NCBI GenBank assembly: GCA_001642005.1
Contig: LWCA01000044.1
Coordinates: forward strand, 1 to 64,000
Direction of reading: 5' to 3'
Source of the DNA: Intoshia linei
Taxonomy: Eukaryota; Animalia; Orthonectida
DNA length: 64,000 bases
The stretch's first letter is position 1, and each line of letters opens with the position of its first letter. Both the position numbers and the translations under genes were made by a program. The notes beneath the pieces were generated by a model that had not been told where the DNA came from, did not search any database, and worked only from the letters and a program-made list of their open reading frames with translations. This document shows positions 4,046 to 63,992 of the stretch, one piece after another.

Positions 4046-4531
4046 TTATAACATTAAAAACTTACTTTCCATATTTGTTGAAGTTGCGTATAATATACCA
4101 AAAGTAAAGGCTATTAGGATTATTGTGACAATAAAAATTAAAAAATTTTTGGTAGTTATCTTAAAAAATGGTTTTTTCTTTGATTCAATTTTTTTTTTAG
4201 TAAAAAATGAGATTTCTTTATTAGATTTTAATGTATTACAATTGATATCGTGATGAGTATAATTTTTGTTGTGATTCTTAATTATTTTTTCTCTTTTTTG
4301 AGTAAACATTTCATTCAATTGTCGACATGTATACGTCTGATTAGGTTCATTCAACGTATCTGTGCAGTAAATGGGAGACTGAGATGTACATTGATTAAAG
4401 TTGTATATTATATCCTTATCGTAGAAATTTTTACATTGATTTGGTTTAAATGTACATGCTTCTCTGTTATTTAATAAATTCTCTTCATATAAATTACTGC
4501 AATTACATTTTTTTGACGAATTTTGTGACAT
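4046..4531 (-). CDS. Orphan 161-aa protein with a C-terminal transmembrane helix
   Basis: ATG-to-stop ORF; Cys-containing N-terminus, basic stretch, then FLIFIVTIILIAFTFGILYA. Confidence 0.6.
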   Translation of the reverse strand: MSQNSSKKCNCSNLYEENLLNNREACTFKPNQCKNFYDKDIIYNFNQCTSQSPIYCTDTLNEPNQTYTCRQLNEMFTQKREKIIKNHNKNYTHHDINCNTLKSNKEISFFTKKKIESKKKPFFKITTKNFLIFIVTIILIAFTFGILYATSTNMESKFLML

Positions 4532-7245: not shown

Positions 7246-8521
7246 TTAGGTGATTCACAAAGTTATGTCGTTTTTATTGATACAATTGATTAGAGACGCT
7301 ATTTCACCGATAAGATTTCACATATTTCCAAATATAAAATATTTTTTAACAATCATGTGTACGACCACATCAGATGAGAACGTAATTTATTTAAATCTAC
7401 ATTTATTCAATCGCCATTGTGCGAAATATTTTAATGATTTTGAGGGACATTTACGTCATATTTTACTGTATAAGTACTTTAAGGACCTTAGTGCAGTGGT
7501 AGCTACCAAAAATATATGTGATGTGTATGGTAAGGATGTTTTAAATGACAGAAAATGTCAAAGATGGTTTAAAAGATTTCGAAATGAAAACTACACTTTA
7601 ATGGATTTTCAACGTTCCGGTAGACCTTCAACTGTTAATATTAATCAAATAAAAAGTGAATTGAAAAAATCTTCAATTTAAACATATCAATCGCTTTCCA
7701 TTGTTGCCAGCTGTTTAAAAAACCAGTGCCTATAATTGTTTGAAACGTTTACAAAAAGTCAATAAGTTTGGAATATGGGTATCCCACTTATTAACGATTC
7801 AACATACATTAAATAGAAAAAACATGCCAATTATTACTAGCCAGACTAAAAAATGAACCGTTTTTAGAAAATATTGTGACTGGTGATGAAAAATGGATAC
7901 ATTGTGATAATACTAAATTGAAAAAACAATGGCATCTTCCCAGGAATCACCGATATTGATTCCAGAACTCCATGGTAAAAAGGTAATAATGAGTATTTGG
8001 TGGGATATGAAAGGTATACTTTATTATGAGTATATTAAAAACAAAGAAACCATTAATGTAAAAAATTATTGCGAACAATTGGATAAATTGACCGATGCAA
8101 TGTACCGTAAAAGACCTCGAATGTTCTCTAAAGGTAATATTATTTTATTACATGACAATGCTAGACCTCATACTGCTATAAAGACTAGATAACATTTAAT
8201 GGACCTTAATTATGAGGTATTAGATCACCCACCATATTTTTCAGACATTGCTCCTTGTGACTATCACTTTTTTAGGTCGATGAGTAACCATTACCATGGA
8301 AAAAATACGATTCAATTGAGCATTTAAAATCTAAGATTGATACCTTTTTGACAAATAAAAGCCAGTTTTTTTCAAAATGGAATTAAGAAGCTACCGGAAC
8401 GTTGGAGAAGAATTGTTGAATGCAATGGAGAATATTTTGTAGAATAAAGGTTAATCAAAATTGTTATTATAGAAGTTTTAATTATAGTTATAAAAACGAC
8501 ATTACTTTGTTAATGACCTAA
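7246..8521 (+). mobile_element. Full-length inactive mariner (DD34D) transposon
   Basis: ~31-bp TIRs TTAGGTGATTCACAAAGTTATGTCGTTTTTA with 3 mismatches, TA TSD, ~1.28 kb. Transposase motifs CQRWFKRFR..RSGRP, IVTGDEKW, HDNARPH, HPPYFSDIAPCDY with 34 codons between D2 and D3. Stops at 7679 and 8190 plus frameshifts. Confidence 0.96.
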
Positions 8522-19605: not shown

Positions 19606-21213
19606 CCAAAAAGTAAAATTTTTAACTTTAAAATATGATTAGCGACTGTAATATGGATGATTTACAGATAAGATAAAATTACGACATATTGTACAATAAT
19701 TTAAATTTTGGTCATAAATGATGTAATGATTAATTAGAGCAATTTAAAAAAAATTCGAAAAAGGAGAGGAATTGTAAAAAAAAATTGAGACCATTAATCT
19801 ATAGTATAATATTCTTGACAGGTCCATGAAAAATGTTATAGTTAACATGTAAATAATTTAAGGAAATAAAAAAAGTGAAGATAAAACTTTTTTCATTTGT
19901 CAAGATATTAGTTTCTGATAGTGACATTTACGACAACGATAATTAATTTCAAACGAATTAATGTCCCAGAATATATATTTTTTTAATTTTAGGGCTGATT
20001 TTATTTTCAATAAAGGTGAAAGTGGGTTTTGTCCCTGAAAGACTCAATTCGTAAAATGACATTTGCGATACTGCATCACTTTTGAAAGCCTATATTAGCA
20101 ATTGGGTTTTTTAAATCTTGGAGTGTTAATTTTTTAAATAAACGGCAACACACACATATTACATTCAAGCGAATGTAATGTATATCAATTTTTTTGGTGT
20201 TCACAGGTTTTTTCAATGCGGTCGTATGGATCCACAGCTAAAAAGAGTTGAGAATGTCTGGTCTACAGAACAAAACATAATCTGAAAAGTTGATTCCTTG
20301 TTTACAATTAATTATCCATATTTATCAAAAAAGCCAAAACAGGAATTAACTTATTATGATCAGTTATTACAACCTCCATATAATCTGAACCACAAAAATT
20401 TCAAATGGGTCAAAAAAAATTTGGAAGCCACAAAGCCTTAAAATATCATCATAAAAAAGATTACAAATATTAAAAAAAACAACGTATGAAATACATTGGA
20501 CATAATAAATAATTATTTAAATTGACATCACTACATAAAATAAAGTTTATTATGGTATTCAAATTGGGTAAAACAGCTATTAGAAGAACTATACCCTACC
20601 TGGAAAAAGATCCACTTTATATAAATGAAAAAATTAAAATATTAATGTTCTCGTACATAACTAAAAAATCTCCGTTTTTAGCTAGCTTGGAGAAATGTTC
20701 TGGATTATAGTAAATTTTTAAATATAAATGTTAATAAAATTCAAAAACTTTTAGTGATTTCATCTACTGGAAAATCCCACAAATTATGTACCAAAACTCG
20801 CAAATTCAATTTTTATTTTTTCATGACAAATCAAAAACAGCTTATATTGAAGCATTCACAGGTGTCTTAAAATGATAAAATAATAAGAAACCTTTAGATA
20901 AAAAGTCAATAATTATGGACTGCTTCGATAAACCCAAGGATATTATACACACTAAATTTATTGAAAATTTTGCATCTCAGTTGTCCAGTATTTTTCATAT
21001 TTTTACAGGCTTTTTAGAAAAAAATTACAAAAAAATACAGAAATGTATTCTAATCCTGCAATATTTGGTTACGATTATAATAGACATTGCATTTGTGAAA
21101 TTAGTGATGCTTGGCCATGTCCACGACTTACTCCTATACCTAAAATGATGCGAGGAAAAGAAATTATGAAGAGTTATATGGAAAAGTCTGCCAAATAAAA
21201 TTTTACATGTATT

Positions 21214-25345: not shown

Positions 25346-26474
25346 CTTCCCAATAATTTTTTACTAAAAAATGGGGGTTTTTGACATTAAAGGACTCAAT
25401 TGCTGAAAATGAAATTTGTCATAAAACATCAATGTCTAAAAACCGTATTAGAAAGGGGTATTCATAAAACTCAAAGCCTATTACTTTCTTAAATAAATGG
25501 TAATAAATAAATAAATAGACATCTATAAATTATTGCGATTTATTTATAGGATACAATGTAATTGAATATTAAATTATGCTATACATTGTAAGTCTTAAAT
25601 ATAAGACATTAATTTATTATTTTTGAAATCGCATGAAATTGACATTTTGGCATAAGGGTTAATTGTGGTTATTTTAAAATTTATTAAATATTTATAAAAA
25701 AGTTACTTAAACCATTTTATATCGTCGGTGAAGCAGCGTTTATATTTTTTAAATATATCCGAGAATCAAATATATTTCAGTTTATTTACAAATTTTTAAT
25801 CAAAAAAATAATTTAATGTTCGATAAGTTCGAATTTCGGACAAATAAAAATATAACCAACACATAAATGGATAAATAAATAATAAATAAAGTAATGTATA
25901 TAAGATATTCAACGATTATAATAATAACATAATTATAATAATTACAATTATAACTAAATTATTAAAAAATTATTATTTTTTAGTTTTGCTTTTTTTAGAC
26001 ACAATTTTGATAATAGTATTAAAAATAGAATCAGGAAATATTCAAAGGGACGATTATCATCATCGAAATTAATCTAGGCAGTAAATATAAAATTCAAAAA
26101 TAGGGTAATTTATTTCTGATTTTGATTTTATCGTAATTATTGTCATTTATCTAAAAATTTATTTATTTTTTTTAGTAGCCTATTTATTTACTCATTCATT
26201 TCTATCTATAATAGATTTTATTGTAAAAATGTTAAAATTATAGTAAAAATGAATTTTACAAATTACACTACGTCATCCCTTTCTGAAGAATGTATTTAAA
26301 TTTAAAAAATTCAATCATAACTTGATACACTAACCTGTTATGCAAAACAATATAAACATAATATTTATTAGATAACTTTACTATGATATCCAAGAACAAT
26401 CGATTTGTTTGCTAATTTCAACTTAACAATTATAAATTAAATGACAAAATTGACGAAATATAACTAAAAATTGT

Positions 26475-29400
26475 ATGTATTCAATTGAAGAAGAAGAATA
26501 TGATTTGTTATCAGATTCCAAGTATAGAATGTACACCAGTTACATTGATAAGGCATTAAAAAATTTTGAATATAGTAGTGAATGGGCAGATTTGATTTCC
26601 GCCATTTCTAAAATAAAAAAGGTAATTTTTTCAATTAATTTATTGAATTTGGTGTACATATTAATTTAATATAGAATTACTTTAAACCCCTTATTTTTTA
26701 AGGAAATTATATAAAAATTCTGTATTTTTCATGTTTATTTAATTTTACTTCATTTAATGTTTTCATCAATTATTCTAACGTCGTACCATAAATTTTTAAC
26801 TATTTGTACAAATAGATACAATTCCTGAATTGAATGCCAATTTTGAATATTCTATCAATTTTTACTTAAAATATTGTTTTACTAATTTTTAATTTTCACT
26901 TTTTTTATAAAGTAGTTTAGCTAAAAATGTATGTCTGTTTGAGTATTTTTGTTTGTTACTATTTATTTAAAAAATTAAGTGGAGTAGAGTTTTAAAAATA
27001 CCAATTTCTAATACAGTTTTTTAAATGTGAAATTTTATTTTCAGAAATTGAGTTTTTCCGGGTCAAAACACCAAGTATCCTTATTTTAAAATCAAACACG
27101 TCCTAAAATTAAAAAAATATTTTTTTATTGAAAATCAATTTAAAAATTTGATTTTAAGTAGCCAATTTAAAGCATAAAAAAGAAAAAATTTCAAATTTGC
27201 CATTATTTTAATTAAACATTAGTTTAAATAAAATCCCGTTGACGGGAATTAGAATGTTCACTAGGTGAGGGTTGTATTGGATGACATTTTGAGAAAAATA
27301 TATTTTGAACATTAATAAATTGATTACATCTATTAAATTATGATACTTGAATGGCTAAGTTACTTTTTTTATTTAAAAAAAAAATGATGCAATAATTGTA
27401 TTTTGTGATGAAAATGAAAATTATTTTTTTCGAAAATAATATTTAAAAAGACTAATTATAAATGAAATAGATTATCGCATCATATGGTCAATATTCTGAA
27501 AGTATTCCAAAGTTGTCTATTATAGCAAAAAGATTAGGCCAATGTTTGCATCCAGGTCTACCTAGTGGTGTGCACCTGAAATGTTTGGAAACTTATGAAC
27601 TAATTTTTTCTCAAATAAAGCCAGAAATTTTGTCTGAAAATTTATTTATTTTTGCTTCTGGATTATTCCCAGTAATGTCATATGCAGCACTAAATGTAAA
27701 AAGTTATTTATTGGGTATTTATGAAAGATATTTTCTTAATTTGCAGAAATCATTACAACAAGCATTCCCAGGATTGTTGGTAGGATTATTGGGAGGATTG
27801 GAAGAAGGTTCTCAACATAATAAAAGAGTATTGGAATTAATTGAAAAATTTTGTAATTGTGTTGGAAAGAGATTTTTTTATGATAAACTCTGGTTGTGTG
27901 TTTCAAACAATGCATCTATTCGCTATAATGCCCTTCTATACGTTTTGGCGCATTACAATCGGCGATTGTCGATGGATGATCAAATTGATATTATGGGTTA
28001 TTATATGCATAATTTTGTTTCTTCCATTTGTTATTGTTTTAGTGATTCAAATATACTGGCTCAACGAAATGCTATTGAATTTGTGATGAATGCAATACCA
28101 ATCCATTCTCATATATTACTTCATTCTGATATGACTAAACTTATGGCGTCAGCTATTAAAATTCTCTTGCGAAGAGATATTTCCCTCAACAGACGAATTT
28201 TTTCCTGGTTTCTAGCAAATAGTAGATCTGAAAAAACTTCGGATCAAACAAACTATTTTGTTCACAATAGTCGTGATATGTTGGTTGATGCTTTAACAGA
28301 ACACATGCATTCTTGTTATACTTTATTTGATTTAATATACGAACGAAATTTGGGTGTAGATGAATTTAAAAAAATTGAAAATCAAAATGATTTTAATAAT
28401 TCTATTTTAAAATGTGTTCAACTTGATCCAAAAATGATTGATAAAACTTTGGTAGCTTTTAGAATTTTGTCAGTTCTCATTAATAATACCATTATTAAAG
28501 ATAATATTATGCATTTTATGTTTTTACGACTTTTAGAATTTACATTTGATTGGGTTTATTTGAATTCTTTATTTCATATTGATTCTCGTTGTTTAACTTT
28601 TAACAAATTATATTACAAACACAAGTACATATCAGTAGAAACTACCCATAGCGGTGATTGGAATTCTTCTAACGATAGTTTAGAGTTGAATTATAAAGAA
28701 AACATTTTAAGTGAACATTACAAGAATGGGCGGAAATATATATCATTCAACAAAAATTTTCAGGAATTGATTGATGAGGATGGTAGATTGAAAAGTAATT
28801 TAAATATGACTCTTGTCTGTTTATATTGTGATGTGTGGTCAATAGATGAATATAAATATGAATTTGAGAGGAAGGATCTTAATGGCCTTATTAGAACAAA
28901 AAAATATAAAACATTTGATGAATTCTTGATAAAATCAAATGATGTTTCAAAAGTTTTAATCAACAATTTTAAATTAATTCTAACAAGTGTACAACCAAAA
29001 TCCATGATTGATATCTTAATTAATCGATTTAATATTATCATGGAAGGTTTAAATAGTTGTATAGTAAGTGATGATGAAATGTCTTTTACAAGTTCAAATA
29101 CTATAAATTCATTCTCTGTCCAACATTGTGATGATAAAGAATTGGTCAGTTATTTGCAATTAAATAGATATTGCAATGCAATTCGTTTTTTGATTAGAAT
29201 GGTCATCCAAGAAAATGAGTCAAATATTTCAGACAATTTATTATGTTATTATATGAAACATACATTGGTTATGGCTAATAAATGTATAGATAAACTTGTG
29301 GTCACTAATATTGTCAACTTGAATTTTTTGTGGATTGCAATATTGCAAAAGATTGATTGTAAAATGGATGATTGTAATATAACATCATCTTCAAGTCTCA

Positions 29401-32400
29401 TGCAATTTAGAAACTTGTATATAAAATTTGCTAGAAATGTATTGTCAAGTATTTTAAAAGTGGATGCTAATAAAACGAGAACTATTACACAACTGATTAA
29501 TCAATTTACGGGTACATGCTATTCTGGTGAATATATAAATGATCCAGTAACTTATGATGTACGAATGGTTTTGGGAACAATTACGACTCTTTTGTTTGAC
29601 GTTATTTTTAGGTTTTTTAATGATGATACTTATATAAATAACGATGATGAAAAAGGCGAAATTATTGTACAAGAGATTGCAAAATTGTGGACGTTATTTT
29701 TAACGGTTTCTATTGTACACACTAATCCAATTGTATACATATGGTCCATTGAAACGTTACTAGATTTTGGTAAATTTTTATATAATGAAAGACGAGACAA
29801 ATGTTTACCGGAAAAAATAATTACTTTAATTAAAGATGAATTTGATGTAATTTTTGATACAAATTATTTTTCTACAATTCTAAAAAGATTGTGGGATTTA
29901 CTTGGCAATACAAATGATGTAAATATTGTTCTAACGATTTATAACGTCGATTCAATCAATAATTTTAAATTGATGGATACAATAATTCTAAATCATCTGA
30001 AATCTGAATTATTTGAAGATCGTATACAAGCTTGCCAAATCTTTGTTAATTTTTGGAATATATTTTTACAAATTTCTGAATATAATGAAAATCTCAATAT
30101 AATTTTTATTACGCAAAGTATACAGTATATGGTCAATATTTTATCTGATGTAGATGATGTTTGTTTCAGTGTTGTAGAAAGCTGGGTTTTAGAATGTTTT
30201 AGAGAAAATAAAATTTCTTTTATTATTGACAATTTGTTGTTGGTTTTATTGAATGATTCTACGAAACGGTATTCTATTTTTTGTGAAGAGGGAAGTGAGC
30301 AATTTAAAAAGTGTTTTTTGGTTGATGTTACGAAATCACACTTAGAAAATAAGTCAAAATGTCAGAATGTTGAAAAACCTTTTAATAAAGATGATAATGA
30401 AATGGAAAAAAATCCCATAGAGTCAAAAATTGATACCCCTATAATAAATACCCCATTGGCGGAACCTGAAAATGAAACATCACCTGATAATATTGTAGAT
30501 ATGTTTGAATTTAAAACATTTGATGCGTATTTACAAAATATTAACTCAATTGATTCAGGATTTAGTGAAATGTTTTTCTCTGCTCCAATTAAAAAACGAT
30601 ATTTAAGTTACTTGAATCTTGATAGAGTTGCATGCATGTATAATCATTTACTTTTCTATTATAAAACTCCTGAATTACAAAATTTATCAAAGTCTTTAAA
30701 ATGCTTGGAATCTTTCTTTGATTTGGATGCTATTTTGATTGTCAACAAATTCGCTACATGCCCTTTTTTTGATTTAAGTGAAGGATCCACAAAAGTATTA
30801 TGCCCAATTCTTGAATCTATGATTTCTCATAAATGTTCAATAATTCTGTCAATTTTTAAAGACATTTCGAAATATTCCATTCCTTCATCAAATACCATTG
30901 ATTCAGATAAAATTACTTCACTTAATAATCACATTTGTTCAAATTTAACAAAATTAAATACCCACATGAATTATTTAGACATTTTGTTGCAAACGCTTAT
31001 CAATTTTCTAAGATCTTTCCCACGTGAAAAAAATTTAAATGGTTTCACCTATGAAAATGAACAATTTAAAGTTCGGATATGCAAAATTTTGTTAAAAATT
31101 TTTCAAGGAATGTTTACCCTCATTTCAAACAATGACAACTTTTATCCACAATATTATTATGATATTTTGACTCGTAATGATACTCAAAAATTACTTATTT
31201 CTGTATATGGTTTTTACTTGTTTCAACTCACAAATATATTAAAAAATGATTACAAGTCTAGTAATTCATGTATTTTAAATTGCAAAACAATATTGAAATA
31301 TTTGGTTTTCATGTTTAATATTTTTATCAAAATTGAGCATTATTATTTCAACAATAATCCTTGTGATGAAGCAAGCTCTGAAAAGAGTGGTGACAGTAAA
31401 AAAGATATTTCTGCTGGCGTAGGTGAAAGTTTATCCAGCTATTTGGATTGCCCTAATATGTCTTGTTTGTATGTGATTGTTCCAATTATTACGAGTAAAA
31501 TATTTGTAGCGTCCCTTTTACGAACGTTTGAATATTTCGAATTATTTTCGTTACAAGTTTGTATATTGGATACCATTATTGATTGTCTCCCATATTTTAA
31601 TAAGCAGCTTGGATCATTATGTACAACCTTTTTAGTTTGTATTTTCAAAAATATTAACAATCATGTTTCCAAATTGGACGAAAAAAAAATTTGGATTATC
31701 TCAATCTTGCTAAAATATGTAAAATCTATTTTTAATTTTTTTATGACTGAAAGTGTGAAATTTAATGGAAATGATTTTCAAATGAAAAATATTATTTCTT
31801 ATAAAAACTATATTACTAAATTCAACATATTAAAATGTAAAGAAACTAAAAAAGTACACATTATTAATGCAAGGAAGCAAGTTTTCAAAATTTTACCATC
31901 AATTATATTTTCTTTGGTCAATTTATGGAATATTTACAATACAAATTTGTTTAAAGAAATTCAAAGTATTTATATGGATTATGATTTTTTTATATTTATT
32001 GTTTTGATCAAAGGATCAGGAAAACTTTTTACATTGGATGACTAAATATTTTATATTGTGGTTTAAAGTCTTTGTACGTAAATAATAGTTAAATAATTAC
32101 ATTCGGATAAATCATTTGTTTTTGGTACGTGGATCCATTAGGATTTATATAATGAAAATTTACCATTTTTTTAATTTATTAGACAATGTGTATATAATCT
32201 TAAAAATAAAGTAAAAACAGTACAATCTTAAAAATTATTATAAATAGCTTAAATTTTAGAAAAAATAAAATTTAAATAAAAAGCTTTCGATGAATAAAAA
32301 AGTATCAATGTTGTATTAATAATTAATGGCATGAGCACTTTAGAAACATATTTCAGATGAATTTTATTAATATTGAAAAAGATTGTAATAAATATAAAAA

Positions 32401-35400
32401 TAATAATGACAAAGTGGTACTTTTATTAATTCGTTGTAGTTTAAATTTTAAATGTTTTGAAAATGAAAAATTGCGAAGCAATAAAAAAATCCGAAGGAAT
32501 CAATTATATAGATTTCCATCCATATGTCTTTATTGGAAATGAATAGACATTAAATACACATTTTATTTGGAAATTGTAGGATGATTATTTACTTTTTCAT
32601 TTTTAAATTTAAATTAAATTAAATTTTAATTCAAAATTTGAAAAATATTGATTGATAATATATTAAAATTATTATTATTTTTCACGGGAATGCGTAGATT
32701 TTTTAAATTTAAAAATTTGTATTTATATCAAATCGAATAAGCTCTATCAGAATCATCTTTTTTTTAATTGTACGACCGTTAATTATTTCAAAGTTTTGTT
32801 TTAATAAAATAGTTTCGAAGTAAAAAAATTAATATTAAAGTGTTTTTTTGACGATGAAGGCGACACTTAATCAGATTGAAATTTTTTTGTGTGTTAACTG
32901 GATATAACTGTATAATTCATTTTTTTTGAATTCTAGGGTTGTTTTCATTTTTAAAAAAAAGAGTAATCTGGGTTTTTGACCGTGAAAATTGTCTTTTTAT
33001 CTGTTACTATTTATGATAATGCTTATGAATTTAAAAACCATGGCAGAATTTATGTTGTATAAAATTATAAGACTATATTAAATTTTACAGGAAAGGGTAA
33101 ATTATGGTTTTGGCCGTGAAGATATAAGATTTTGAAATTGAAAATTATCTTAATATTGATGAATATAAAACTTTTCATTAGAATGTGTAATTTTTATAAT
33201 TCTAGAACGGGTTTTTAACGTTGAAGGACTCAATTTCTGAAATTGAAATTTGCGATAAAACAACACTCTGGAAAAACGGTTATAAGAATATGGAATTCTT
33301 GGACACAGGACCGTGGAGAGCCAGCATTAGGCCAAATCAGTTGGAAATTTGTAGCCCAGATAAATTTTTTTTTATAAATAGGGTCCTCTATAGATTGCTT
33401 AATCGGTCGTTTATTGCCTAAAAATTAAAAATAACAGTTGCAAATCGCATTAGTCATGATAATTTTGACATACTTAAGAAAATTTCCAACAGTACCTATT
33501 AATGAATTAAAATATTAGGCCCTCATGATTGTAGACCCGGGTCATATGGACCTAGCTCCATTGTCGACCATTCTTCTTGGGCGTATGGTTGATAAACACA
33601 CGAATTTCATCCTCAAGGTATATAATTCATTTTATTTTTGTGTTTTTTATTTGCAGCATAGTAGAAAACCTTAACTCTGTTTTGTTTATCAATTTTCTCT
33701 GGCCGCATATAGTTTTGCTGGGCGCACCGGTTGAGAAACACTGCTATAATGGGTCCGAATTATAAAATATCAAAATTAGAAAAACTGCTTATTTTTTCAA
33801 GTGGTGAATTTTTGTAGGTTTAGAATTTAAATAAATACATGATTTTATAAACTGCCGTTTTATGTGGTCACTTTTGACTTGGCATTGTATTTGTAATTAT
33901 AACTGTATTATTTAGAATGTCAAATTACGAAACGGTCTATTCTTTCTAATATTGGATCAATCATAGAAGTAATATTATATCATGATTCAATTACATGCAT
34001 AACAGCATTTTCTGTTGTATGGGGTGAACTTTCAATTGGAAAAAGAATTAATTCTCCAATTGAATATATTATTCCTTCAATAACCAAAGAACAGGAAATG
34101 ATTATTACTTTTCTACAATCGCTGGAATGTTTTCCGTGTAACAAGTTTTTTGTAGCAATTAAAGACGGAATTAAAAATCCATTAAAAGGTCTTTATTCTT
34201 CAACGACCTCCCATCTCAATAAAACCTATATAAATAAAGTGCAAACACGGAAAACGTCTTTAGACATTTGTATGCTACGAATGTTTTATTATTATATTTG
34301 CAAATTAGACACTGGTTTATTTATTAACCATTGGAGTGTATTATATAAATTTTATAAAGATTCAAGCAATGATTTGGAAAAGCCTACTTGTATATTTGTA
34401 TTAATGTATTCATTTGTGGACATATCAGAACGAATGAAAGTAAGTGATTCAAACATGTATAAAGAACTTCAAGAAATCACCATTAAATTAATAGAAAAAA
34501 TTAATACAATTATTTCGGCTTTATTAGAAAACACAACTTGGATTAGACGCAGTTTAATTGTCAAAAATTCAGTACAAGTTGATTATAATGAATACCCTGA
34601 AGATATGAAAAAAATTCCAAAAAATCGTGAAAATTATAGGATGCGATACAGTGTCCAGGGCATAATGGCTTTAGTTGACTCATTATCTAAGCTTATGGAC
34701 ATTGTCTTTACTAGTGAGGATAAAGAAAAAACTGTTCCAATTTTAACTAGCGTATTAACCAATGTGTTTCCGTTTTTGAGAGCAAGGTCTTGCAGCAATA
34801 TACCTGCTTTCAGAGCTTCTTCAAATCTTTTGAGAAATTTATCAGACTATCAATTTTCACGCAAAGTTTGGAAACGAGATATTTTTGAACTTTTTAACGA
34901 CTCATCTTTTTTTCAAGTCGATGAAACTAGTTTTAAAGATTGGGTCATAATAATTGATAATTTGATGAGCAATGATACTACTACATTTAGAGAACTTTTG
35001 ACGCGTCCTCTTTCAAGTCAAAAAGCAGCACTACCTCTTTTTATATCCAGGGAACAAGAAATTGAACAACGGTGTGCTCACATTAAGCGTATATCTTTTG
35101 TTATATATAGTGGAGAAATTGACCAGTACTACAAATACTTGCCAGAAATTCAAGAAAAAATTACAGAAAATTTAAAATTTGTATCTCCTTTTATATTGAA
35201 CGAAATTTTCTTTTGTTTCAGAATAATTTTACTTAAATTTTCAAGAAACCTGGTTTCCATTTGGCCAATTATTATATATGAACTTACAAATGCTTTAAGC
35301 ATCATGCACCAATTTTTAAGGGCAAAATACGATGACGATGATTCTCTTAGACAGAGAACAAATTCTATTATGAAAATTAGTGGAATTGATTTGAACGCAA

Positions 35401-35882
35401 AAGCCTGGAAGTATGCTTTTTTGGGAGCCGTTAAATTATTGAATTTGTTGATTGATATACCTGTTACCCACCTCCCTCATTTTCAATTTTACAATTGGGC
35501 TTTTGTTGATTTGAATCAGCAATATAATGAATCTACGGAGAGTCCAGGTGTAAGTGATATAGATTATTTTACTGATGAAACTGTCAATACTAAAGAAAAT
35601 AAAAAGTATTTTATACCATACACGTTAAAAATTAACCAATTATTACAAAAATCTAAAAATAATACTAAAGATCTAGTTTCTAAAAAATTAAATTACGCCA
35701 AGTTAGTTGAAAGTTTTATACCAAGAGTTTCCATTAAATCTATCGAAGAATTATCACCTTTTTTTGAGAATATTTCAGACAGAATTACTAGAATAAAACC
35801 AAACGATGAATATCAAATTTACGAAAATATAAACATCTCGACTTATCTCAAACCTCATGAATTCTTAGAACCCTTCAATTAA
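26475..35882 (+). CDS. DOP1: Protein Dopey (DOP1 / pad-1), about 2200 aa
   Basis: Dopey N-terminus DSKYRMYTSYIDKALKNFEYSSEWADLISA..KRLGQCLHPGLPSGVHLK and C-terminal WKRDIFELF..IIDNLM. Exons 26475-26621, 27471-31965 and 33916-35882 join in frame with GT-AG introns. Confidence 0.95.
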
Positions 35883-35924
35883 TTGTATAATTTATTTTGT
35901 ATAGTCACATTACATTTTTAATAT

Positions 35925-38119
35925 CTAATAATTGTCTAATAATCTTGCAGATGGATCTACATTATCTGAAAATGGATGCCTCCAAAAAAATGGTATTATT
36001 TGTGAACGATTTGGGTAATGTTTTTCAAAAATTTCTCTATAATAAAGACTTTCTTTATCGTATGGAGTACAATGTTTGTATTTTTGACATTTTTCCAAAA
36101 ATTCATCATCGCTGTATCTACTTTCAACAAAATCTTTAATGTAATTAAATGCAGAATATTCCTTTTTGGCAATTCCATCAGAAAATGCTTCTTTTCTCCG
36201 CCACAGTAATTCTTCTGGTAATATATCTGAAAAGGCATTTCTTAATATCTGTTTTTCCATTAATTTATATTTTTCCTTACTCCAAGCTGCATCTCCTTTA
36301 TCTAAATATAATGTAGTCACTACATGTTAATTTCCAATTAATTTGATCATAATTTCGCCTTTCTAAATTTTAAGCTTTAAGGATTCTTTACACCCCATTT
36401 TTAAGTCATAATATTAAAACTAATACATTTTTTCAATAACACTAGTATTTGAAACTTAAAAATCTTCAATTGATAAATAGAGCATCGGTTACACAATGCA
36501 GGTCTGCAGATCATTACCGGGTTCCTATGAAAAACCTATCTGTTTATGGTAAAAATAATTTTATAACCATTAAGGTGAAAAAGTGGATTTATATCACCTA
36601 AATTTTAATTTAACTTGGTAAATTTTTCATTAAGACCGGTAGTGGTCCGCGGACGTCTACAGTATTTTGGAAACGCTGACTTAATATGTGCAATCAATAA
36701 ATAATTGTAACCGAATTTTAATCGATATGTTGCTTCCATTTTCTGATCAAATCTTTTATATTCCCCAGGAATACTCATAACATAAAGGAGCAGGTTTTTA
36801 TCGGCAAAAGGTACACGAGCATCGAGAGTTGCTGATGAAATGGTTTTGTCACTTCTAAGTACATCAAAGTATTGTATATTATTTAGCATTTTAACATTCT
36901 CTTGGTCAAGTTTATCACCACATTCAGTTTTACCGAAACCACGATACCCTCCAAAAATTTCATCTGACACGTCTCCACAATATATAACAATATTCTTACC
37001 AATCTTCTTAACAAATTGAGATACCAAATAATTTCCTATCGATGCACGAACAGTAGTAACATCATAAGATTCTATTTGATATATTGTCTCATCGATAGCG
37101 TCAACATATTCTTCTGGGGTAATTAATAATTCATGGTGATCAGTTCCAATGTGTTCTGAAGCTATTTTTGCATAGTGCAAATCCTCCGAACCTTTCAAGC
37201 CTACTGTATAAGTGTGTAATGGTTGATCATAAACTTTTTTAACTAGAGCAGTGATAAGAGTAGAGTCCAACCCTCCAGATAAGATACACCCAATTGGTCG
37301 ATCACTCATGAGTCGCTTTCTAACTGCACCTAGAAACAACTTTCTAACGTTTTTGGCTATTTTTAAGCAATTTTTGTCAATATCAGCGTCCAATGTGTCG
37401 ATAGTATAATCAAAAGGAGCTGGTGAATCTTGGTTATATTTATTTATCCAAAATGGGTCAATATGTGATTTTTCAAATCCATCTTTAACATCAAAATAGC
37501 TGAAAAATTTTCCACTGCTTGAAGTATAATAAGAACCAACCGGAAACATCATAACGTTTTCTAAATCCTCTGGGATGGCTTTCATTTCTGATACGAAAAA
37601 ATGATTATCATCCTCAACATAATAATACATGGGTTTTATTCCAATAGGATCTCGAGCCACTATATATTCACTAGATGTTAAATCCGCTATAACCAATGAA
37701 AAAGTTCCGTCCAAATGTGACACTGTTTTTTCTATCCCAAATTTGAAAAACATTTCTAAGATTATATCGCAGTCGCAATTGGATGTTATTTCTAGGTTGT
37801 ATCGTTTTTGTAAATCTTTATAATTATAAATTTCTCCATTTACCATACTCCCATATCGATGACCTTTTTTTGCAAATTTTCCACTTTGGCTTTCATTCGT
37901 AATTTCGTTTTCGGAACCATTATACGATTTAAAAAAAGGCTGCATGGAGAATTGATCCAATCCTACAATGGTCAATCTATGAAAACCCAAGGTTATTAAT
38001 CCATCGCAAAATTGTTCATAATAAGTGTTCTCTGGACCTCTATGATATAGTCTTTTAAAATATTTTTCTAGTGTTTTCATACTATATTTACGACCTTTGT
38101 AAAAAAAAATTCCGCACAT
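35925..38119 (-). CDS. ASNS: Asparagine synthetase (glutamine-hydrolysing)
   Basis: MCGIF N-terminus, HRGP, NGEIYN, ARDPIG, LSGGLDS, EKQILRNAF, WRRKEAFSDG, DPSAR. One phase-1 GT-AG intron 36711-36302 joins the two ORFs. Confidence 0.96.
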
Positions 38120-39228
38120 GTTCGTTTTCTTCTCTAGATGATGAGTTGTTGCAACGATATTAAATTTACGATTTTGATTTTAAATTAAAATTTAACTGGT
38201 TTATTTGTTAATTAATACGTTTATATTGAATTTCAAAAATTATACGTGTATAATTAAAATGAGTTTTAAAAATAGTTAAAAAGTATTTAATTGCACTATC
38301 ATATAACTAACTTACACGACATAAGTTCAGAATCTGAATTCGATTACTTGTACAGAGTTGCCAGACATAAAGTTATATTCTACATTTAAAAACGATGATT
38401 TTGAAATCTGTATTTTTGATGTGTACAGTGTACAGTTGTGTTTCAGTGAAATAGTTTCATAAATTAATGATAAATTTAATTGAATTTATTAGAAATTTTG
38501 CATCTTAAAATTTTTTTTATCAAATTTAATATTTACGAGAATGTTTTACGGTGATTTGATGATTATTTAATGAAATAATTGTTTTTAGCGTAAATTTTAG
38601 ATTAAAAATCTCTAATCTTATAAAATAGCCAAAATTTGAATAAAAATTACAAATTTTAGTAAGTAACAAAATTGTAACATTCTTGTAAAGAAGTCGATTA
38701 TTCGAATATGTATTTTATTATTTACAATTATTTAATAATTAATAATAATATTGTAAAATAATTTAAAATAATAATTAAGATTCTTCAACAGTACAGTAAC
38801 GTATAGTATCAATATGTATTTAGTGAATACTACAATTCTCATGGATTCTCAATGACAAAATAAATAAAAATTATTAGTACTATTCGTATAAAAGTTCAAA
38901 TTTTAAATTAAAATTTAAGTTTAATTCATCAAAATGTATATGTTTCCATGATTAAATTTAAAATTATTGAATTAAATTGTGACATTTATGGAATGACTAA
39001 TTAAATGTATACTTATGAAATTGGAGTCGTTTTATAGAACTGCTCCGTGGAGCAATTTTCTGGCAACTCTGCACTGCCGTCGATTTCGACGGCGTCGAAT
39101 ATTATCTTGCATTATTATTTCAAATATAAGTTTATTTAATCAACATTTTTATATCAAAAAAATAATTGTACAATTTAATATAATTAAATTTAACTTTAAA
39201 TACTCTATTCATAAAAATCATCTTTATT

Positions 39229-40378
39229 ATGATTAAAAATAAATATCAATCTGAAAAATTATCATATTGCATTGTATGGACGTCTATTCCAATGTTATCG
39301 TAAATTTATAATAAATTACAGTAGGGAGTCCCTACTATGGACAAATTAAGGGCACCATGTTTTATGTAGTGTAACCATGTATAATATACAAATATTTATA
39401 ATAAATAATAATAATTTACAGTTTAAAATTTAAACCATGTAAATTGCATCGAAACCTTGTCGAACTATGAGTATGATTATAATTTATTTTGAATTTAAAT
39501 GTAGATACATTTTTCCACTAATTGGACATGTTGGAATTTGCAACTCAAAAGGCCAAATTTGTGATTTTGTTGGAGGTGTCAATATAGATAATTTTTCTTT
39601 TGGCAGACCACTAAAGTAATGTAATTGTGACTAATGAAAATTAATTCTAACTCGTATTATTTTTTATAATTTAGATACACCCGATTATATCATGACGAAA
39701 ATGTTAATGCTGAACAATATGACAAGATGATTGACGAGTCAAACATGATTTATGATAAAAAAAACGTTTATTTTATTTATTATTCTTGTTTCTTTTTTCT
39801 TTAATTTGATCGTACCTTGGCAGTAACAACCCAAGGATGAACTCTCGATCGTGTCCATGTGTTAATCTTTTTGAGACAATTCTAATTTTAAAAAATTGGA
39901 AGCAAAAGTTTTAAATTTAAATTCTCTAAAAACTCTATTAGAAATTGGGTGTTTTAACTATAGGAATCTTAATTTTTTAATTAAACGGTAACACAGGTGT
40001 TCATTTTTATATATGTTACCGTCAAAGTGAAAATTCAGGCAATTTGCAAACATTTATTTACATTTGTAAGTAAATGATGTAAATTTAATAGCACAACCTA
40101 TTTACGACAAATTGCTACGATCATGTATGCTACGCTTTAAATTTGCTTGGTTATCAAGATAAAAAATGGACACGAATTCAACTAGCTTTCTTAATGATGC
40201 GGAAATCCCACTACGTCGAGTAATTTTAATTTTAAATAATATATTTTATTTTTAATATAAAAAATTCATGATTTTTTAAATTTTTTTTAGTCAATTTGCG
40301 AAAATTGCGACATATCTACCTTTCTTAATTGTATTAACTTTAATTATTATTACTCTATATTTTGTTACTAAATTTTAA
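39229..40378 (+). CDS. TMEM222: TMEM222 / RTE1-like (DUF778) membrane protein
   Basis: Five exons (39229-39299, 39505-39615, 39675-~39765, ~40092-40219, 40291-40378) give YCIVWTSIPMLSYIFPLIGHVGICNSKGQICDF..NFSFGRPLKY..HNLFTTNCYDHVCYALN..TYLPFLIV, which matches the family motifs. Confidence 0.92.
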
Positions 40379-45185: not shown

Positions 45186-45684
45186 ATCTAACGAAAAAAT
45201 TTAACTTGAGAATTTACATAGTGAACCCAAACCGCCATGCTCGAGATACCCAGAATCAAATATTTTTAAATGTGCTGAATCTAGTAATTGTAATTATAAT
45301 TAATGTATTATTCCTTTAATTATAATTATAAACACCTAATGTATGTAAGCCTAATAAGTGTGATACCGTGAAATTAAAAAATTAAGAGTCGTAGAATTCA
45401 AAAACCATTTCTAATACAGTTGTCTAGAATGATGTTTTGTATCACTTATCATATTTTCAGAAATGGAGTGTTTCATTGTCAAAAAACAATCTACACTTTT
45501 AAAGTAACTATTGGACAAATGGCGTGGAAAGCCATCAGTTAGGCCCGGGATAGATAGAAATTATAGGCACCACATAAAAAATTTAAATTTAAAAAATTAA
45601 AATATAAACCCAAAATTAATATGTAACCTATTAAATTGATAATTTTCCATTGTGAAACTAAATTTATCAAACAAAAGTGGTTTT

Positions 45685-48600
45685 TCATTGATGAGAATTT
45701 GTCGTATAAGGTCTAAATAAGAATAAAGACCATAAAAAAATTAATTTACAGCAACTTGTAATCATTTTGTATTGTTTTTTAGATACACATAATTTTTGTA
45801 AAAATTCTACATATTTATTAAAAATATGAATTAAATCTACTCCTTTAATTTCCATTACAGTTGAATTCAGGATTGTTATTCCCAACTAAAATAATTAAAT
45901 TTAAAATTTGATTAAAAATAACCTTTGAAACTTTTTCATTGTTTTCATTAATTATATTAAATAATAATTCCAGAATAAATCTAATCAATTTTTATTAAAA
46001 TTAATAAATTTTTCAATGTACAGTCAAACCTCTCAATACCGCCATTGCGCCATACATATAGTGGCGGTATTGAGAGGTATGACTGTACGCTGTACAATGT
46101 TGCACAGATCCGAACTCACCGTACCGAAATCAATTTTCGGGTCTTTTAGTCTTTTACAAAATTTTAGTTAAATGAGGACGTTTATAAATATTAAAAAAAA
46201 TATTTTTGAATATTATAACTATTTTGCGTTTTAAATTTAACTAAACGTCCAGAGTCGTGGAGCGATGATTAGGGTTATATTATGAATCATTGTTTGCTAA
46301 ATAATTTTTACGTTTCTACATGTGATTTTCGAGGTGCTCGATCACGGTAGGTTCGGTTCTGATATGAATTGACTAACAATAATGAATATACCTTTTATCA
46401 AATTGAACATAAGTGTTAATGAGATTCTTAATAAAAATTAGAATTTGAATCAGATTTTCTTGGTCCACCTTGTCAAGAATGTACAATAGTTCTAAAATAT
46501 AATGATAAATATTCATTGATTTGAATTATATTAATAATGTACATATATACTGTAATTGACGTAATAATTGTTATATATTAATAATTGATATAATAATGTA
46601 GTTGAAGCTATGTATGTTATATACCAGGCATTATCAATCCTTTCTTACTGTCTACCCTATGATGATATTGAAAAAAACCTGTGGACCAAAAAAAATTATA
46701 TACATTACATCCTTTACTTATATAAAATTTTATGTGTTTGTGTTACCATTTATTTAAAAAAATTACAATTGGCAATAATGTTTTTCAAGAGTGATACATC
46801 GAAAATGTCATTTACCGAAATTGAGTTCAATTCAGTGTAAAAAACCTAATTTCAACTTATGTTACGAATAAAATTTACTTTTTAACTATTTTTAAAAAAG
46901 GGGTAATTTGTGTTTTTGATCATGTAAATGTACGTTTCTGAGACTGACATTTACAACAATGTGAATGATTTTAAAACGCGTCCCAGAATTTATGTTTTTA
47001 AGATTCTAGGCTGATATTGTTTTTAAAAAAAAAAGAAATTTGGTTTTTGCCCTGGAGGCCTAAATTTCGGAAAATGAAACTTGCCTTAAAACATCACTCT
47101 CATCAAAAACTGTATTAAAAAGTGGCTTTTTTAATTCTAGGACTGTTCATTTATTTAAATAAACGTAAAACACAGACACATACCCACCAACACAGACATC
47201 CAATTTTATATAAGTAAAGAATTATACAAAAAGTTGTTACAACGTTTTCGCCGTGGACTCCATGAACCCTAAAAAATAGTAAAATATGAATCCATTGAGT
47301 AATCACATGACAAAAGAACAAATATTTATGGTCTCTAATGATATCAATAATCTAAAATGTTTTTATTGATCCAGAACGCTACGTGGTCCATATGGACAGT
47401 ATGGGTAACGATCTCTGAATTAGTCTATTAATAATAATACCAGTATAATGCTGAAAGATTTCACGTATCAATTGATCAGTTTCAGGGTTTGATTCAAAGC
47501 ATAAATGAATACAATATAATTTATTAAATGTAGTCAATAATTGCAAATAAATGCTTTTAGCTAAAACACATTCAACCTGAAATAAACGGGTAATTGTATT
47601 ATAAATTTCTTTGCTTTTTTCAGATAAACATTTTATCACACAATGTAAATATTCTGGATAGTTTTTCCATTTTTCATTTTTTGATTGGATATGAATAGAG
47701 TACTGAAGATGAACAAAATAATTTACACAATTGGGAATAGATTTTAACAAAATTAAAATATTGTCAATTTTTTTATTTTCCTTTTTATTTAGCTGTTTGA
47801 TGAGACATAGAGATAAATCAATCATGTTAAATAATTGACAAAATATTCTAAATAAGTTTTAGTTTAATATATTAGTTTTATAACTTTGAATTTATTTCCA
47901 GTTTTTTTTCAAATTTGTTAAACATGACAAATGGAACCAAAATAAATCCATCAAATAAATCGGTTATATGTTGTCTAAATAGTTTTATCAATAGAGTTTT
48001 AAAAAGAAAGTTTAAACTTTAAATTGATCTAGTATAGATAGTATATAACATGGCGTATAATTAAAATGGCAAAATATAACAAAATGCATCAGTATTTTTA
48101 TGTTGAGTTAAACGTACGTTTTAAAAAATTAATAGACCAGATAAAATTCAATATCGGTAATAGTTTGGTAGTCAATAATTTATATGTAGAGTATTTTAGC
48201 TTTGTTTAGAAAATAAATTATTTACGCTAATAAAAATCACATTTTTGTTTTTGCCCATGAAACTCTGTTTATAAATTTTAATTTGCTCGTGTATTGTATC
48301 GGTTAACATAAATAAATGGAAAATACCCATTAGAATTATTTCCAATGTCCAATACTTTGACAATTATAGTAAAAAATAGCTTTGTCTCGTTGATGTAGCA
48401 ATGTTTGCATAATTTAATGGACTAATTTAATAATGTATTATTGAAAACATAGAATTACACTGTATAAATGATATAAACAAATTTCCACAAATCCAATTTC
48501 GCTATCAATATATTCTGTTTCTTTTTTTGAATCTATAAAATTAATAAAATGTAGAAATAAATCAACATTTTTATTAAATTTATCAACAAATTTATTGGAG

Positions 48601-51600
48601 TTTTCCTAAATTATATAATTACAAAAAACAATTTTTTTGGACAAAACTTTTATATTTAAAAAAAAAGTAATTCATGATTTTAATCATGAAGATATAAGTT
48701 TCAAAGATTGAGATTTACGGTAATGAAACATTACTAATGTTAATGATTTAAAAAACTTTTTGGAATTTATGTTTTTTTTAAATTGTAGGACTTTATTTTA
48801 ATTATAAAAAGGGTAATTTTGGTTTTTAACCCTGAAGGACTCAATTGCTGAAATTTTAATTTGCGATAAAACATCACACTGAAAAGACTGTATTAGAAAA
48901 TGAGTTTTATTTAATTCTAGGAATCTTAATTTTTAATTAAACTCTAACACAGATTTTCATTTTTGGATAAGTAAAGAATTGTGACAATTAGGGCAAGTCA
49001 AATGATTGAAATTCTAATTTTGATATGTTAATAATAATCAACATAACATTACAATCGTTATAATACCAATATTATGCATATTAATTGGCCAATTAAAATA
49101 ATTATTTATTTATTTTTTTTTAATTAAATTATAATTTAAAAAATTTTAATATAACGTAACACGTGAAAATGAAATGATAAAAATTTATATTTAGAATTCA
49201 ATGTATAATGTACCTCATCAAATATATTTTGAATATAAAGTTTAAATTTTGATATAATTTTGTTTGAATCTTTTAGTGGTTGAACTTGTTTAAGTTCATA
49301 TATCATTTTGAAAATGTCAACTTCATCATAAAGACTTGAATTATTAATCATGTATTTTGACAACAAAACATCAATTAAATAATACTAAACATTTCAACAA
49401 ATTAAATATGTTATTAATTATCAATTATTATTATCATATTTTAATAAATATTATACCGAATTATTATCCAATGTTAGATTATTGTATATTTTTATTAATT
49501 TATTAATGTTTTTTGGAAATTTTAAACTAAATTAAGTTATTTTTCATAAGCAATGACTATAAAATGTGTATATTATACATATATCAGGACTGTGGATATC
49601 CAGCAGTAGCTCCGGTTAACCCAGTGATTCCCCTCCTGTGGGTATTTACCCACTAGTGGGTAATCGTGAAATTTGTTCCAACAAATATGCATTTTTTTGA
49701 TTTTTTTGTATCGCATGCACACTGTGCATTATTAAATGCATTGCACAGTAACGTATAAAATATAATTTTTCCCATTAAGTCCTTCAGGGTCAAAAACACC
49801 ATTTCCCCTTTATTTTACTATTTTGTAAAGTTAGTCTTTTAAAAAATTTTAATTAAAGTTTACTACAGTGGTCGCTCCCTAAATTAAACAGTATCTAAAT
49901 ACACTCAGCGATTACTGTACATGGTAAGAATATACATTCCCGCTCTTGAACATAAACACAATTTATTGTTATTTTTCTCATAAATTTGTTGTAATTTAAT
50001 TAATTTTATATATATATGTAATTTAAGAAATTTATAAGAAAATGCGAGTTCTTCAATTTGAACAATTCCTTTATTTTAAAATTTTGATTTTTCTCATAAA
50101 TTTCACAATAAATATAGTATGAAATAATTAACTACAGTGTTCAATCTCTAAAACTTGAACACCATCCATTTTTTTGCAGTTAGTGTTCAATTTAGAGAGC
50201 GATCACTGTATTAAAAAATTTATATGGCTTATTCTAAAAACCTGACCATCCAAAATGCATTTAAACAACATAGTGGGTAATATCAAATAAAGTACTATAA
50301 TATGGGTAATGTAATAAAAAAGGTTGGGAAATACTGGGTTAATCAGTCCACTCATGTTAATAAACCGGCACATTTCGGATTTTGATATATCCATGGTCCT
50401 TTATTTTAAAATACAAATTTATATATCCTTATTACTCTTCAGTTAAGTTTGCATCAAAATTTTCAAAATTAAAAATGTAATTAATCCATTTTAAAATGGT
50501 GAAATCTGGATTTAATTCATAATTTTCACTTTTTATCTAAATTTATTAGTTGTTTTTGAAATTTTTGAAATAATGATGAAAATTACCAAATGTGTACATA
50601 TTGTATTGATAGATTTGATTACTTTAATGTTTTCATATATAAATTGAATATTATCCAAAATGTCCCCGTTTACAATATCAAATAGAATTAAGAAAAACTA
50701 AATTACATTATTTAAAATTAAACATTTTGTTTTCTGTTATGGATAAATACAGACAAAGTACAATAGACTTTATTATGGTGTCACATTTTTTGATAAATTA
50801 TAGAATCTAATGTATGTTTAGTCTAAAGTATTTAGATTCTAAACTTTAGAGTATAGTGTTTTCATTTATAAAATATTAATATTAGTTCAAAATAAAAATA
50901 TCTATATATACTTTTTCGAGTTGCGCACACCCAATGCCGAGCCTACTATACCCAGACTCCGCTTTTAGCGAGGTACTAGACGATATTTATGTGGTATACT
51001 CTTTATTATCTTTATATTATAATTATATAATTATCATTTTTTTTATACCTTGATCCCCAGTAAATAAAATAATTTTATAAAAAATATATGAATATGTAGA
51101 AGGCTGGTCAACTATAGAAATGTCGAATCGTATATTATTTACTATATATTATATACTATTATTTTTAATTCAATAACCTTATACATATTCTGTCCATTAT
51201 AAGATATTAAAATTTTATTAAATTGACTTTCTAAATCATTTTCTTGATATTTATTAGTTAAATTATTCATCACGTCAATTCCAATCTAAATGTACATTAC
51301 AATATATATAAGATGCACGTGATTGATATGTAGAGTCTATATCAGTGCTTTTTAACCTTTTTACTTCAAGGCACACAGGTGAAACACATAAAAATTTCTG
51401 ATATATCTTAAATTTTGATAAAAAAAGCACATCGATATTCGAAAATGTGCAAAGATTAAAAGAATAAAAATGTAAAATCGTATAATGTATTGTAATTGTA
51501 ATTAATGAATAAAATCAAAGAATTATCAATGTAAAAGTTTGAAACTAATTTTAAAATTCGATTACTTTATTATATTATTATTCAACTTATATTGTAATAA

Positions 51601-61866: not shown

Positions 61867-63992
61867 TTATTTTTTTTTTGTTTTATACAACTTTGCTTCA
61901 TATTGAGCCAAAGACATATAATTTGTGATTTTAGCAAAAGATGCAGCATATTTTGAAGTAGATTTAGGTACTACATTGCTGGCAGATACTTTTAATAAAT
62001 TAATAATATCTGCATCGGGGGGTTCAAAAGTTTTTTTCTTTTTCTTTTTACGTTTTTTATTTGACTTTTGCAATGGGTCAATTTCACTGTTATCAACTTT
62101 TAAAATAATTTCTTCAGTTGGTGGAAAAGAAGGAAAATCTTTATTAGTCATCATGAATGGTTCAGCGACATTATTTTTTTTGATTTTAGTCGCTATTTTT
62201 TCTTTTGGTTTAAGACTAAATGTACAGGTATTGTGTAGTGTGATTTTCATTATTATCGAAATATTAATTCATAAACATGTATAACATTTAACTTTAAAAT
62301 AGGATTAGTAACTGTAATATGGATAATTTAAAGATATGCACAAAATTACGACGCATAGTATAAGTTAAAATTTGGTAATAAATAAAATAATGATTGGGGG
62401 AGAAATTTAAAAAAAATTCAAAAAATAAAATTTAATTATAAAAAAGTTTGAGAACCACAGCTCTATAAGTTCTTTTTAATGACTATCATAAACAAAAATT
62501 CACTTGCCAATTTCATTTTTTTACTAATTAGAAGTCAATTGATTACGTTTTTTATCAAATTTTTAATAGATCCCAGTGTTAGAGTCATAATGTTCTATTT
62601 GAATTTTTGATGAAAAATGTTGCCAATTATATCTTACATTTTATCAAAAAAAATAAGCTTGAAAACGTATTATTTATGAGATAACTTCATCGTGTATTAT
62701 TCACAAACTCATAATAACAAGAAATATAATAATTTAATGGTTTTTATTTAAAAAATTAAATTCCGTTAACAAGTGTACTATGGGAAAAATTTCATATTAA
62801 CGAAATTTCCAATCCCTGGTAAGGACTTAGAATTTACCATAGATTCCTTAAAAAAATTTAAAACGGAAGTAATGTAATATAGCGCTAGCCACATTTCTCC
62901 GGTTTGGACTTATGTTTAAATTTGACACTCAAAACAGTTAATTATTTTAATATAATAAATTAAATATGGATACCAAGAATTATTCCATTTTGCTAAACAT
63001 TAATAAATTAAAATAAATGAATTTCATACGTGTAGGTTTTTCTGTGCAAAGTGAAGGAAATTCGCTATAGAATAAATTATTTTTTTGAATAGTACTATAA
63101 GATGGATTTTCACTATTAACCCTCCATTGACCGCGTAAATTTATTTTGTTATGAGTGGATAAAGAAGCTGATGAACTAGGAGTTTTGACACAATTGGATT
63201 CAATTTTCTTTTTTTCGCCAATAACAAAATCAAACTCATCTTCATTTTTTTGAGATTGACTAAACCTGAGTTGGTGAAGTGACGGAAAATCTTGTTCTGA
63301 ATATTCATACCTGGATGGTGGATCACTAAATACTTTAGTTGTGACTGGTTGATACATCTCATTATTATAAATGGTTACACCTGGAATAAGATTGGTTGGT
63401 TCAGTAGGTGTAACTGTACTTGAAAATTTAAAAGTTGAATATTCAAGTCTTTGTTTTTGAGAAAGCTTATCTGAATGACATTCTATTAAATGACAGTGAT
63501 AATCATTCTGAGTTTGAAATACATTGGAAAAATGTTCCCTTTCACAACCATCAAGGCTACACATGTAATGTTTTGAACTAAAATGTAATTTTAATTCTTC
63601 ATATGACTCAAAGAAGGTAACATTGCTTTCAGAAAAATCACAAATAAAGCAGTTGAAATGATTTCGCCGATTATGTTGTCGATAATCATCTGAATCAAAA
63701 AGTTCTAAATTGCAAAATGAACAAAATCTATGGCCCGATAACTTGTCATTATAATTGAAAGTATGATCACGTAGTTCCTTTCCAGTGTACAGTTCATGGA
63801 ATCGAGGGAAAATTTTAATATGGTCGACACAAGTCTGACAATATGAACGATTATGACATTGCATGTGTTTCATTAGCGCGGGCATACTGCTAAAATCTTC
63901 CTGGCAAAAAGTACATTGATATCTTAATAAAAACAATAATTTGCTTTTGCTCCATTCATCCAAATGTATTCCGCAAAAAATCATTAAGTTTC
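61867..63992 (-). CDS. ZNF598: E3 ubiquitin ligase ZNF598/Hel2-like, 3' part (5' end outside the window)
   Basis: C2H2 array typical of ZNF598 (YCQTCVDHIKIF, GHRFCSFC, HFNCFICD, HFSSKHYMC..C) and repeated (D/E)FPS(L/F) motifs, one of them in the 62250-61867 ORF assigned as last exon. Middle exons unresolved. Confidence 0.82.

Follow-up and report, generated by a model that had tools for sequence, protein, structure and literature searches.

The orthonectid Intoshia linei, a reduced parasitic worm placed in Annelida, carries an asparagine synthetase whose sequence groups with the AsnB proteins of Nucleocytoviricota and not with animal ASNS. We consider it quite probable that a giant-virus AsnB was acquired long ago by the I. 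linei line and then domesticated, the donor being likely viral. The gene lies in a 64-kb stretch of DNA (hereafter the window), to which all positions refer. Contigs were available from three runs of one study (X1, X2 and X3), which are not recorded as RNA and are treated here as contigs; they were used for the introns that they skip and the genes that they bridge, and depth was not used to rank genes. The locus is organised as follows.

33903..35882, plus strand: last coding stretch of Dopey/DOP1, a host gene, convergent, with its end 42 nt away from the stop codon of the synthetase
35925..36301, minus strand: exon 2 of the synthetase (377 nt, through the stop codon), with the KEAFSDG motif and a virus-type C-terminus
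36302..36711, minus strand: intron of 410 nt, GT..AG, phase 1, splitting the Asp470 codon; its joint (36301-36712) occurs in contigs
36712..38119, minus strand: exon 1 (1408 nt; codons 1-469 plus one base), 296 bits to TIGR01536, with contigs in all three runs
38120..38202, minus strand: likely 5' UTR, the stretch 5' of the ATG within the same X2 contig

This intron is the only one of the two-exon gene, and the spliced product of 594 aa is identical, letter for letter, to database protein P0001 (I. linei A3Q56_00725, OAF71520.1). Exon 1, held by a minus-strand open frame of 504 codons (36608-38119), encodes the glutamine amidotransferase domain together with the greater part of the synthetase domain, and it contains Cys2, the SGGLDS loop and virus-type motifs; all motifs quoted in the first-pass annotation were found within this frame. 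Pfam and NCBIfam scans returned the glutamine amidotransferase and Asn_synthase domains, and the exon-1 frame alone exceeds the TIGR01536 cut-off of 267.1 bits. By these domains and this cut-off, the product is a glutamine-dependent asparagine synthetase (AsnB, TIGR01536).

Alignment showed conservation of the positions matching Cys1, Arg49, Asn74, Gly75, Asp98, the SGGLDS loop and Lys449 of E. coli AsnB, which, together with Glu348, we take to have catalytic roles. The counterpart of Glu348 is Asp383 in the worm synthetase, and Asp is likewise found across the viral clade described below. A structure model (pLDDT 86) matches the fold of human ASNS (6GQ3) and E. coli AsnB (1CT9) with a TM of about 0.75. 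The worm protein thus shares with E. coli AsnB and with metazoan ASNS (human, Owenia, Lingula and mollusc) the two-domain fold and the alignable catalytic positions, but it is only 32-37% identical to them, has other diagnostic residues and forms no joint clade with them. The predicted reaction is that of an ordinary AsnB, converting aspartate, ATP and glutamine to asparagine: Cys2 would free ammonia from glutamine, and the C-terminal domain would adenylate aspartate with ATP, leading to asparagine. The predicted enzyme would supply the parasite's asparagine, replacing the ancestral animal ASNS or acting alongside it.

Similarity searches with this protein pointed away from animals. With the whole protein as BLASTP query, the best environmental protein scored 523 bits, against 363 for the best of the 15 named animal ASNS checked. 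In two region searches, none of the best 119 non-self rows (of 7186 and of 1956 matches) was named to a cellular organism, and no EukProt protein was among the top rows. Overall identity to the nearest relatives is just 45-48%; phage records reached no more than 22-30%, and the best match of a BFVD fold search was at 33%, with no close relative that had a name. Organism names were absent from ten clusters with NCBI or large membership. The motifs quoted in the first-pass annotation recur along the whole length of the relatives. For labelled loci, we compared 89 from viral contigs (L001-L089) with the best 80 of 119 confirmed GTDB loci, and a CGD[V/M/L/F][S/A]DE-type motif was present in 71 of the former versus one of the latter. 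This count, together with the clustering of the protein with viral sequences (100/98 in the careful tree below), bears out the likeness to Nucleocytoviricota AsnB that had initially been proposed. The single GTDB carrier (L104) lies on a 4-kb contig, and its protein is a near twin of the giant-virus MAG locus L048; it was binned in a Bacteroidetes MAG, likely as viral DNA within the bin.

Phylogenies gave the same picture. A FastTree analysis of 571 rows, leaving out proteins shorter than 330 aa, locus proteins shorter than 440 aa and 13 redundant mammals, placed the worm gene in a 212-row clade (support 0.98) containing 69 viral-contig loci, 141 unlabelled proteins and one GTDB contig, while the 15 named animal ASNS formed a separate clade elsewhere (support 1.0). 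A 738-row tree agreed. Labelled members of the clade are therefore nearly all viral, the 69 viral-contig loci standing against one short MAG contig. A more careful tree of 67 chosen rows (IQ-TREE, LG+C20 PMSF) joined the worm gene to the viral clade at 100/98, with inner sets holding it at 99/94 and 98/94, and recovered Metazoa elsewhere at 100/100. Coverage of protists was thin, at two EukProt rows, and plant and fungal AsnB were not represented. The first-pass annotation had called for such a phylogeny with topology tests, naming a position inside metazoan ASNS as the outcome contrary to its proposal. The worm protein instead lies outside the animal clade, with animal-type residues at only 2 of 27 diagnostic columns, and forcing it together with Metazoa cost 130-191 log units and was rejected in three AU tests (p 3.6e-4, 1e-13 and 6e-5).

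The viral nature of the clade was assessed from its genomic surroundings. Pfam scans of flanking frames of clade members (97, 92 and 71 frames) revealed gene-dense flanks of mostly unknown frames, with domains of the RING, ubiquitin, Ulp1 and glycosyltransferase types. One of the labelled relatives that score best, L010, carries genes for major capsid protein, VLTF3, Erv1 and Rpb1 no more than 6.3 kb from its AsnB. Further hallmark genes flank other members (A22 resolvase at L251, PolB at L020, Erv1 at L050 and a capsid-like match at L016), although most clade loci had none in the 10-kb flanks scanned. The top three ESM Atlas clusters were 70, 94 and 88% viral, Nucleocytoviricota being the commonest.

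The direction of transfer is less firm than the kinship with the viral clade. Nesting inside viral diversity would show a virus-to-animal transfer, and such nesting is favoured by the sequence data but not firm. An initial AU run rested on a quick tree that was found to be sub-optimal, and the topologies were retested against the careful tree. On the quick tree, which set the worm gene at the base of the clade on a zero-length stem, a topology that kept the query outside the viral clade scored better (+15.4, p-AU 0.71). On the careful tree, placing the gene outside the other 27 clade rows was rejected (p 0.036 under LG and 0.005 under PMSF), that topology coming from a shorter search. The nearest sister of the worm gene differs between analyses.

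These placements bear on the possibility that the gene is foreign but arrived by way of a cellular carrier, with some unsampled protist or bacterium that had the subfamily donating it to the worm alone or to worm and viruses alike. We regard this route as unlikely. It would accord with the basal placement that survives the quick-tree test, with the 141 of 212 clade rows that have no label (unlabelled metagenome proteins make up two thirds of the clade) and with the related virus-like AsnB in Marinimicrobia and Bacteroidota genomes, the occurrence of which indicates that the family moves between viruses and cells. Against it, the careful tree nests the worm gene among viral loci, no EukProt or named cellular protein appears among the top rows, and the motif is found in just one of the 80 GTDB loci kept (of 119 confirmed), on the short contig near-identical to a giant-virus MAG locus. 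Regarding the GTDB loci themselves (L090-L131), the AsnB of Marinimicrobia branches among viral-contig AsnB and not with that of E. coli, and Saprospiraceae and Psychroflexus have another virus-like AsnB type, possibly reflecting further exchange between viruses and cells.

Orthonectids are reported to evolve fast (PMC12249979, PMC6543705), and an ordinary animal ASNS of such an AT-rich worm might be drawn to AT-rich viruses by long-branch attraction and composition. The share of FYMINK residues would fit, being 0.365 in the worm protein, 0.32 in the viral clade and 0.267 in animals. We nevertheless consider this explanation very improbable. The end branch of the worm gene is not long (0.55-0.66; 0.55 in the IQ-TREE tree, where it was not flagged), and the viral clade with the worm gene was retained under the site-heterogeneous model and, at 99.7/100, under four-state recoding. 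Raw similarity is far greater to the viral clade, and the three AU tests reject the animal grouping. In addition, at the 27 columns that separate the viral clade from animals, the worm protein is virus-type at 20, animal-type at 2 and neither at 5; 12 of the 20 virus-type columns are not moves toward AT-richer residues, and the 20 include two shared gaps and four moves to GC-richer residues.

A reverse transfer, in which a gene of the orthonectid line seeded the viral subfamily, draws on the basal placement not being rejected on the quick tree, and we hold it to be highly implausible because the next relatives outside the clade are found among further viral AsnB and those of bacteria (Marinimicrobia, Bacteroidota) and not among animal ASNS; it is also contradicted by the rejection of the query plus Metazoa, and an estimated 2000 or so stored viral stretches that match the clade's patterns speak against it.

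The remaining alternative, that viral DNA was mis-assembled into a worm contig or represents a recent endogenous giant virus, derives some plausibility from the shortness of the contig (67.9 kb) and is scarcely credible given the setting of the gene. As had been proposed, the synthetase lies between ordinary animal genes: it is adjoined by Dopey/DOP1, by an RTE1-family gene and by a Gpi1 (PIG-Q-like) gene, with bHLH, bZIP and kinase genes farther away. Run contigs skip 12 GT..AG introns (36-326 nt) of nearby genes as well as the synthetase intron. The joint was found in contigs of three of three runs in one comparison and two of three in another, with the junction contig extending only 29-30 letters per side; in X1 and X2, its depth was 828 and 612, versus 33 and 19 for the intron-holding contig. 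One X3 contig spans 33644-36301, that is, from the Dopey end through exon 2 of the synthetase, and the runs differ from the assembly at four coding positions of the gene, three of them synonymous. The GC3s of the synthetase (0.201) falls within the range of six host frames (0.188-0.250). Queried with 1414 frames taken from viral loci, the 64-kb window yielded only the synthetase and weak host kinase matches, with no other virus-like gene; it holds no run of viral genes with hallmarks such as would define a giant endogenous viral element. The synthetase is a single, ameliorated, spliced worm gene; it is not a contaminant, nor is it a resident provirus. Contamination is argued against by the spliced intron, the link between exon 2 and Dopey and the host-like GC3. 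The first-pass annotation had reached the same conclusion partly from a host-type MITE in the intron, and that part of its reasoning falls away, since the host-type status is unsupported.

Two observations concern the neighbouring Dopey/DOP1 gene (27471-35882). Its open frames of 4.6 kb and 2.0 kb are split by a repeat-rich region (~32150-33530) that draws many run contigs. Its 3' end and that of the synthetase lie 42 nt apart (35879-35925), and their transcripts likely overlap, because contigs of each extend into the end of the other.

The intron-free stretch of 1.4 kb to which attention had been drawn is present as the 1408-nt exon 1. We dropped it as a sign of transfer, since the native Dopey gene holds a 4.6-kb open frame (27471-32045).

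The intron has a more informative position. It sits in a 23-residue insert that L010, P0161, Owenia, Pongo and E. coli lack, as do most viral relatives; in P0002, P0004 and P0157, this loop holds unrelated inserts. The proposal of a single intron within a lineage-specific insertion is thus upheld, and because animal ASNS, E. coli and most viral relatives lack the insert, the intron is not an ancestral ASNS intron, an ancestral position being the other outcome that would have spoken against the proposal. One intron is few for I. linei, in which the median intron is 57 nt long and a gene has about five (PMC6543705). The insert and intron together form a 479-nt block; splicing removes 410 nt of it and leaves 69 nt (23 codons) in frame. 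The following features mark it.

36734..36740, minus strand: copy 1 of a 7-nt direct repeat, AATGGAA, in frame with Met461-Glu462 and bounding the 479-nt insertion
36255..36261, minus strand: copy 2 of the AATGGAA repeat, in frame with Met484-Glu485
~36474..36689, no strand assigned: decayed inverted repeat, possibly an old fold-back element (folding z -4.49), single copy in the window

The AATGGAA pair is a possible target-site duplication, in a window that holds 30 occurrences of this 7-mer, both strands counted. The arrangement would fit an insertion that duplicated its target site and turned into an imprecise intron. None of 300 shuffles gave a palindrome as good as that of the intron, and the decayed inverted repeat is real. 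Its description as a host-type MITE remnant is unsupported: a second copy of the palindrome was found neither in the 64-kb window nor among repeat contigs of the runs at 85% likeness, so that the many copies that mark a MITE are missing within the window and the contigs compared, and the intron matched neither of the two window repeat families profiled.

Taken with the preferred reading of a domesticated giant-virus gene, these features suggest a possible course of events. A viral AsnB gene would have entered the germ line, the flanking viral DNA being lost or never transferred, and its synonymous base use would have drifted to that of the host. The 479-nt insertion in a surface loop may then have become an imperfectly spliced intron that left 23 extra residues, and the acquired gene would have fallen under host transcription. 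More tentatively, and as an account that we would rate somewhat below an even chance, a giant virus may have infected the orthonectid line and its synthetase replaced the ASNS of the worm outright, so that a bilaterian genome among the most reduced would rely on a viral enzyme in a core amino-acid pathway, with an intron that arose from a mobile insertion and beside which the target-site duplication and the 23 leftover codons can still be read.

Giant viruses trade genes with protists and algae. To our knowledge, well-supported cases of giant-virus metabolic genes domesticated in an animal nucleus are rare, the octocoral mitochondrial MutS being the usual example. No report of the present transfer was found in the literature searched, although the Intoshia genome paper, a survey of virus-eukaryote transfers or Mozar and Claverie 2014, or supplements of these, may list the gene. 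Giant endogenous viral elements in green algae were reportedly described by Moniruzzaman et al. in 2020, with giant-virus genes that had gained introns; those are long multi-gene regions with hallmarks, whereas in Intoshia there is one gene among host genes. The closest precedent for a virus-to-animal kinship is the octocoral MutS (MutS7 type), which PMC6163669 relates to the Mimiviridae version. In both cases an animal gene has giant-virus genes as its near kin, but the octocoral gene is a mitochondrial one with a role in DNA repair, whereas the worm synthetase is a nuclear, metabolic gene of a bilaterian, and animals ordinarily inherit a counterpart of it.

On the viral side, a Mimiviridae-specific asparagine synthetase serves as a marker (Mozar and Claverie 2014, as cited in PMC6163669), and the family is listed as NCVOG0061, with homologues also in other large viruses, in PMC5127864. 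The worm protein belongs to the same enzyme family as the Mimiviridae protein and clusters with AsnB of giant-virus MAGs and IMG/VR contigs, the viral side of our tree consisting of MAG and metagenome contigs without named isolates. It differs in that its gene lies on an animal nuclear contig, with a spliceosomal intron and host-like codon use.

The animal concerned is a bilaterian and a parasite noted for losing genes, and the enzyme is a housekeeping one normally inherited within animals. The case hints at Imitervirales-like viruses reaching animal germ lines, in which event the synthetase gene could be used as a marker to trace such a virus or the host of one. It may also offer a clean test case for gene replacement and for intron birth from insertion.

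Finally, other parts of the window deserve mention. Several frames of 157-172 codons in 1112-2342 and 4049-4540 had no Pfam match, and a fragment of a Mariner-type (Mos1 HTH) transposase lies at 7250-7681. One repeat family has pieces at 19613-19781 and 62279-62445. The other, a dispersed family of ~300 nt, is represented by at least a dozen pieces in the window, among them the following.

46886-47197, 48650-48988, 19899-20188, 26928-27128, 32946-33311, 25356-25510, 45341-45500 and 39905-40028: pieces of the ~300-nt repeat family
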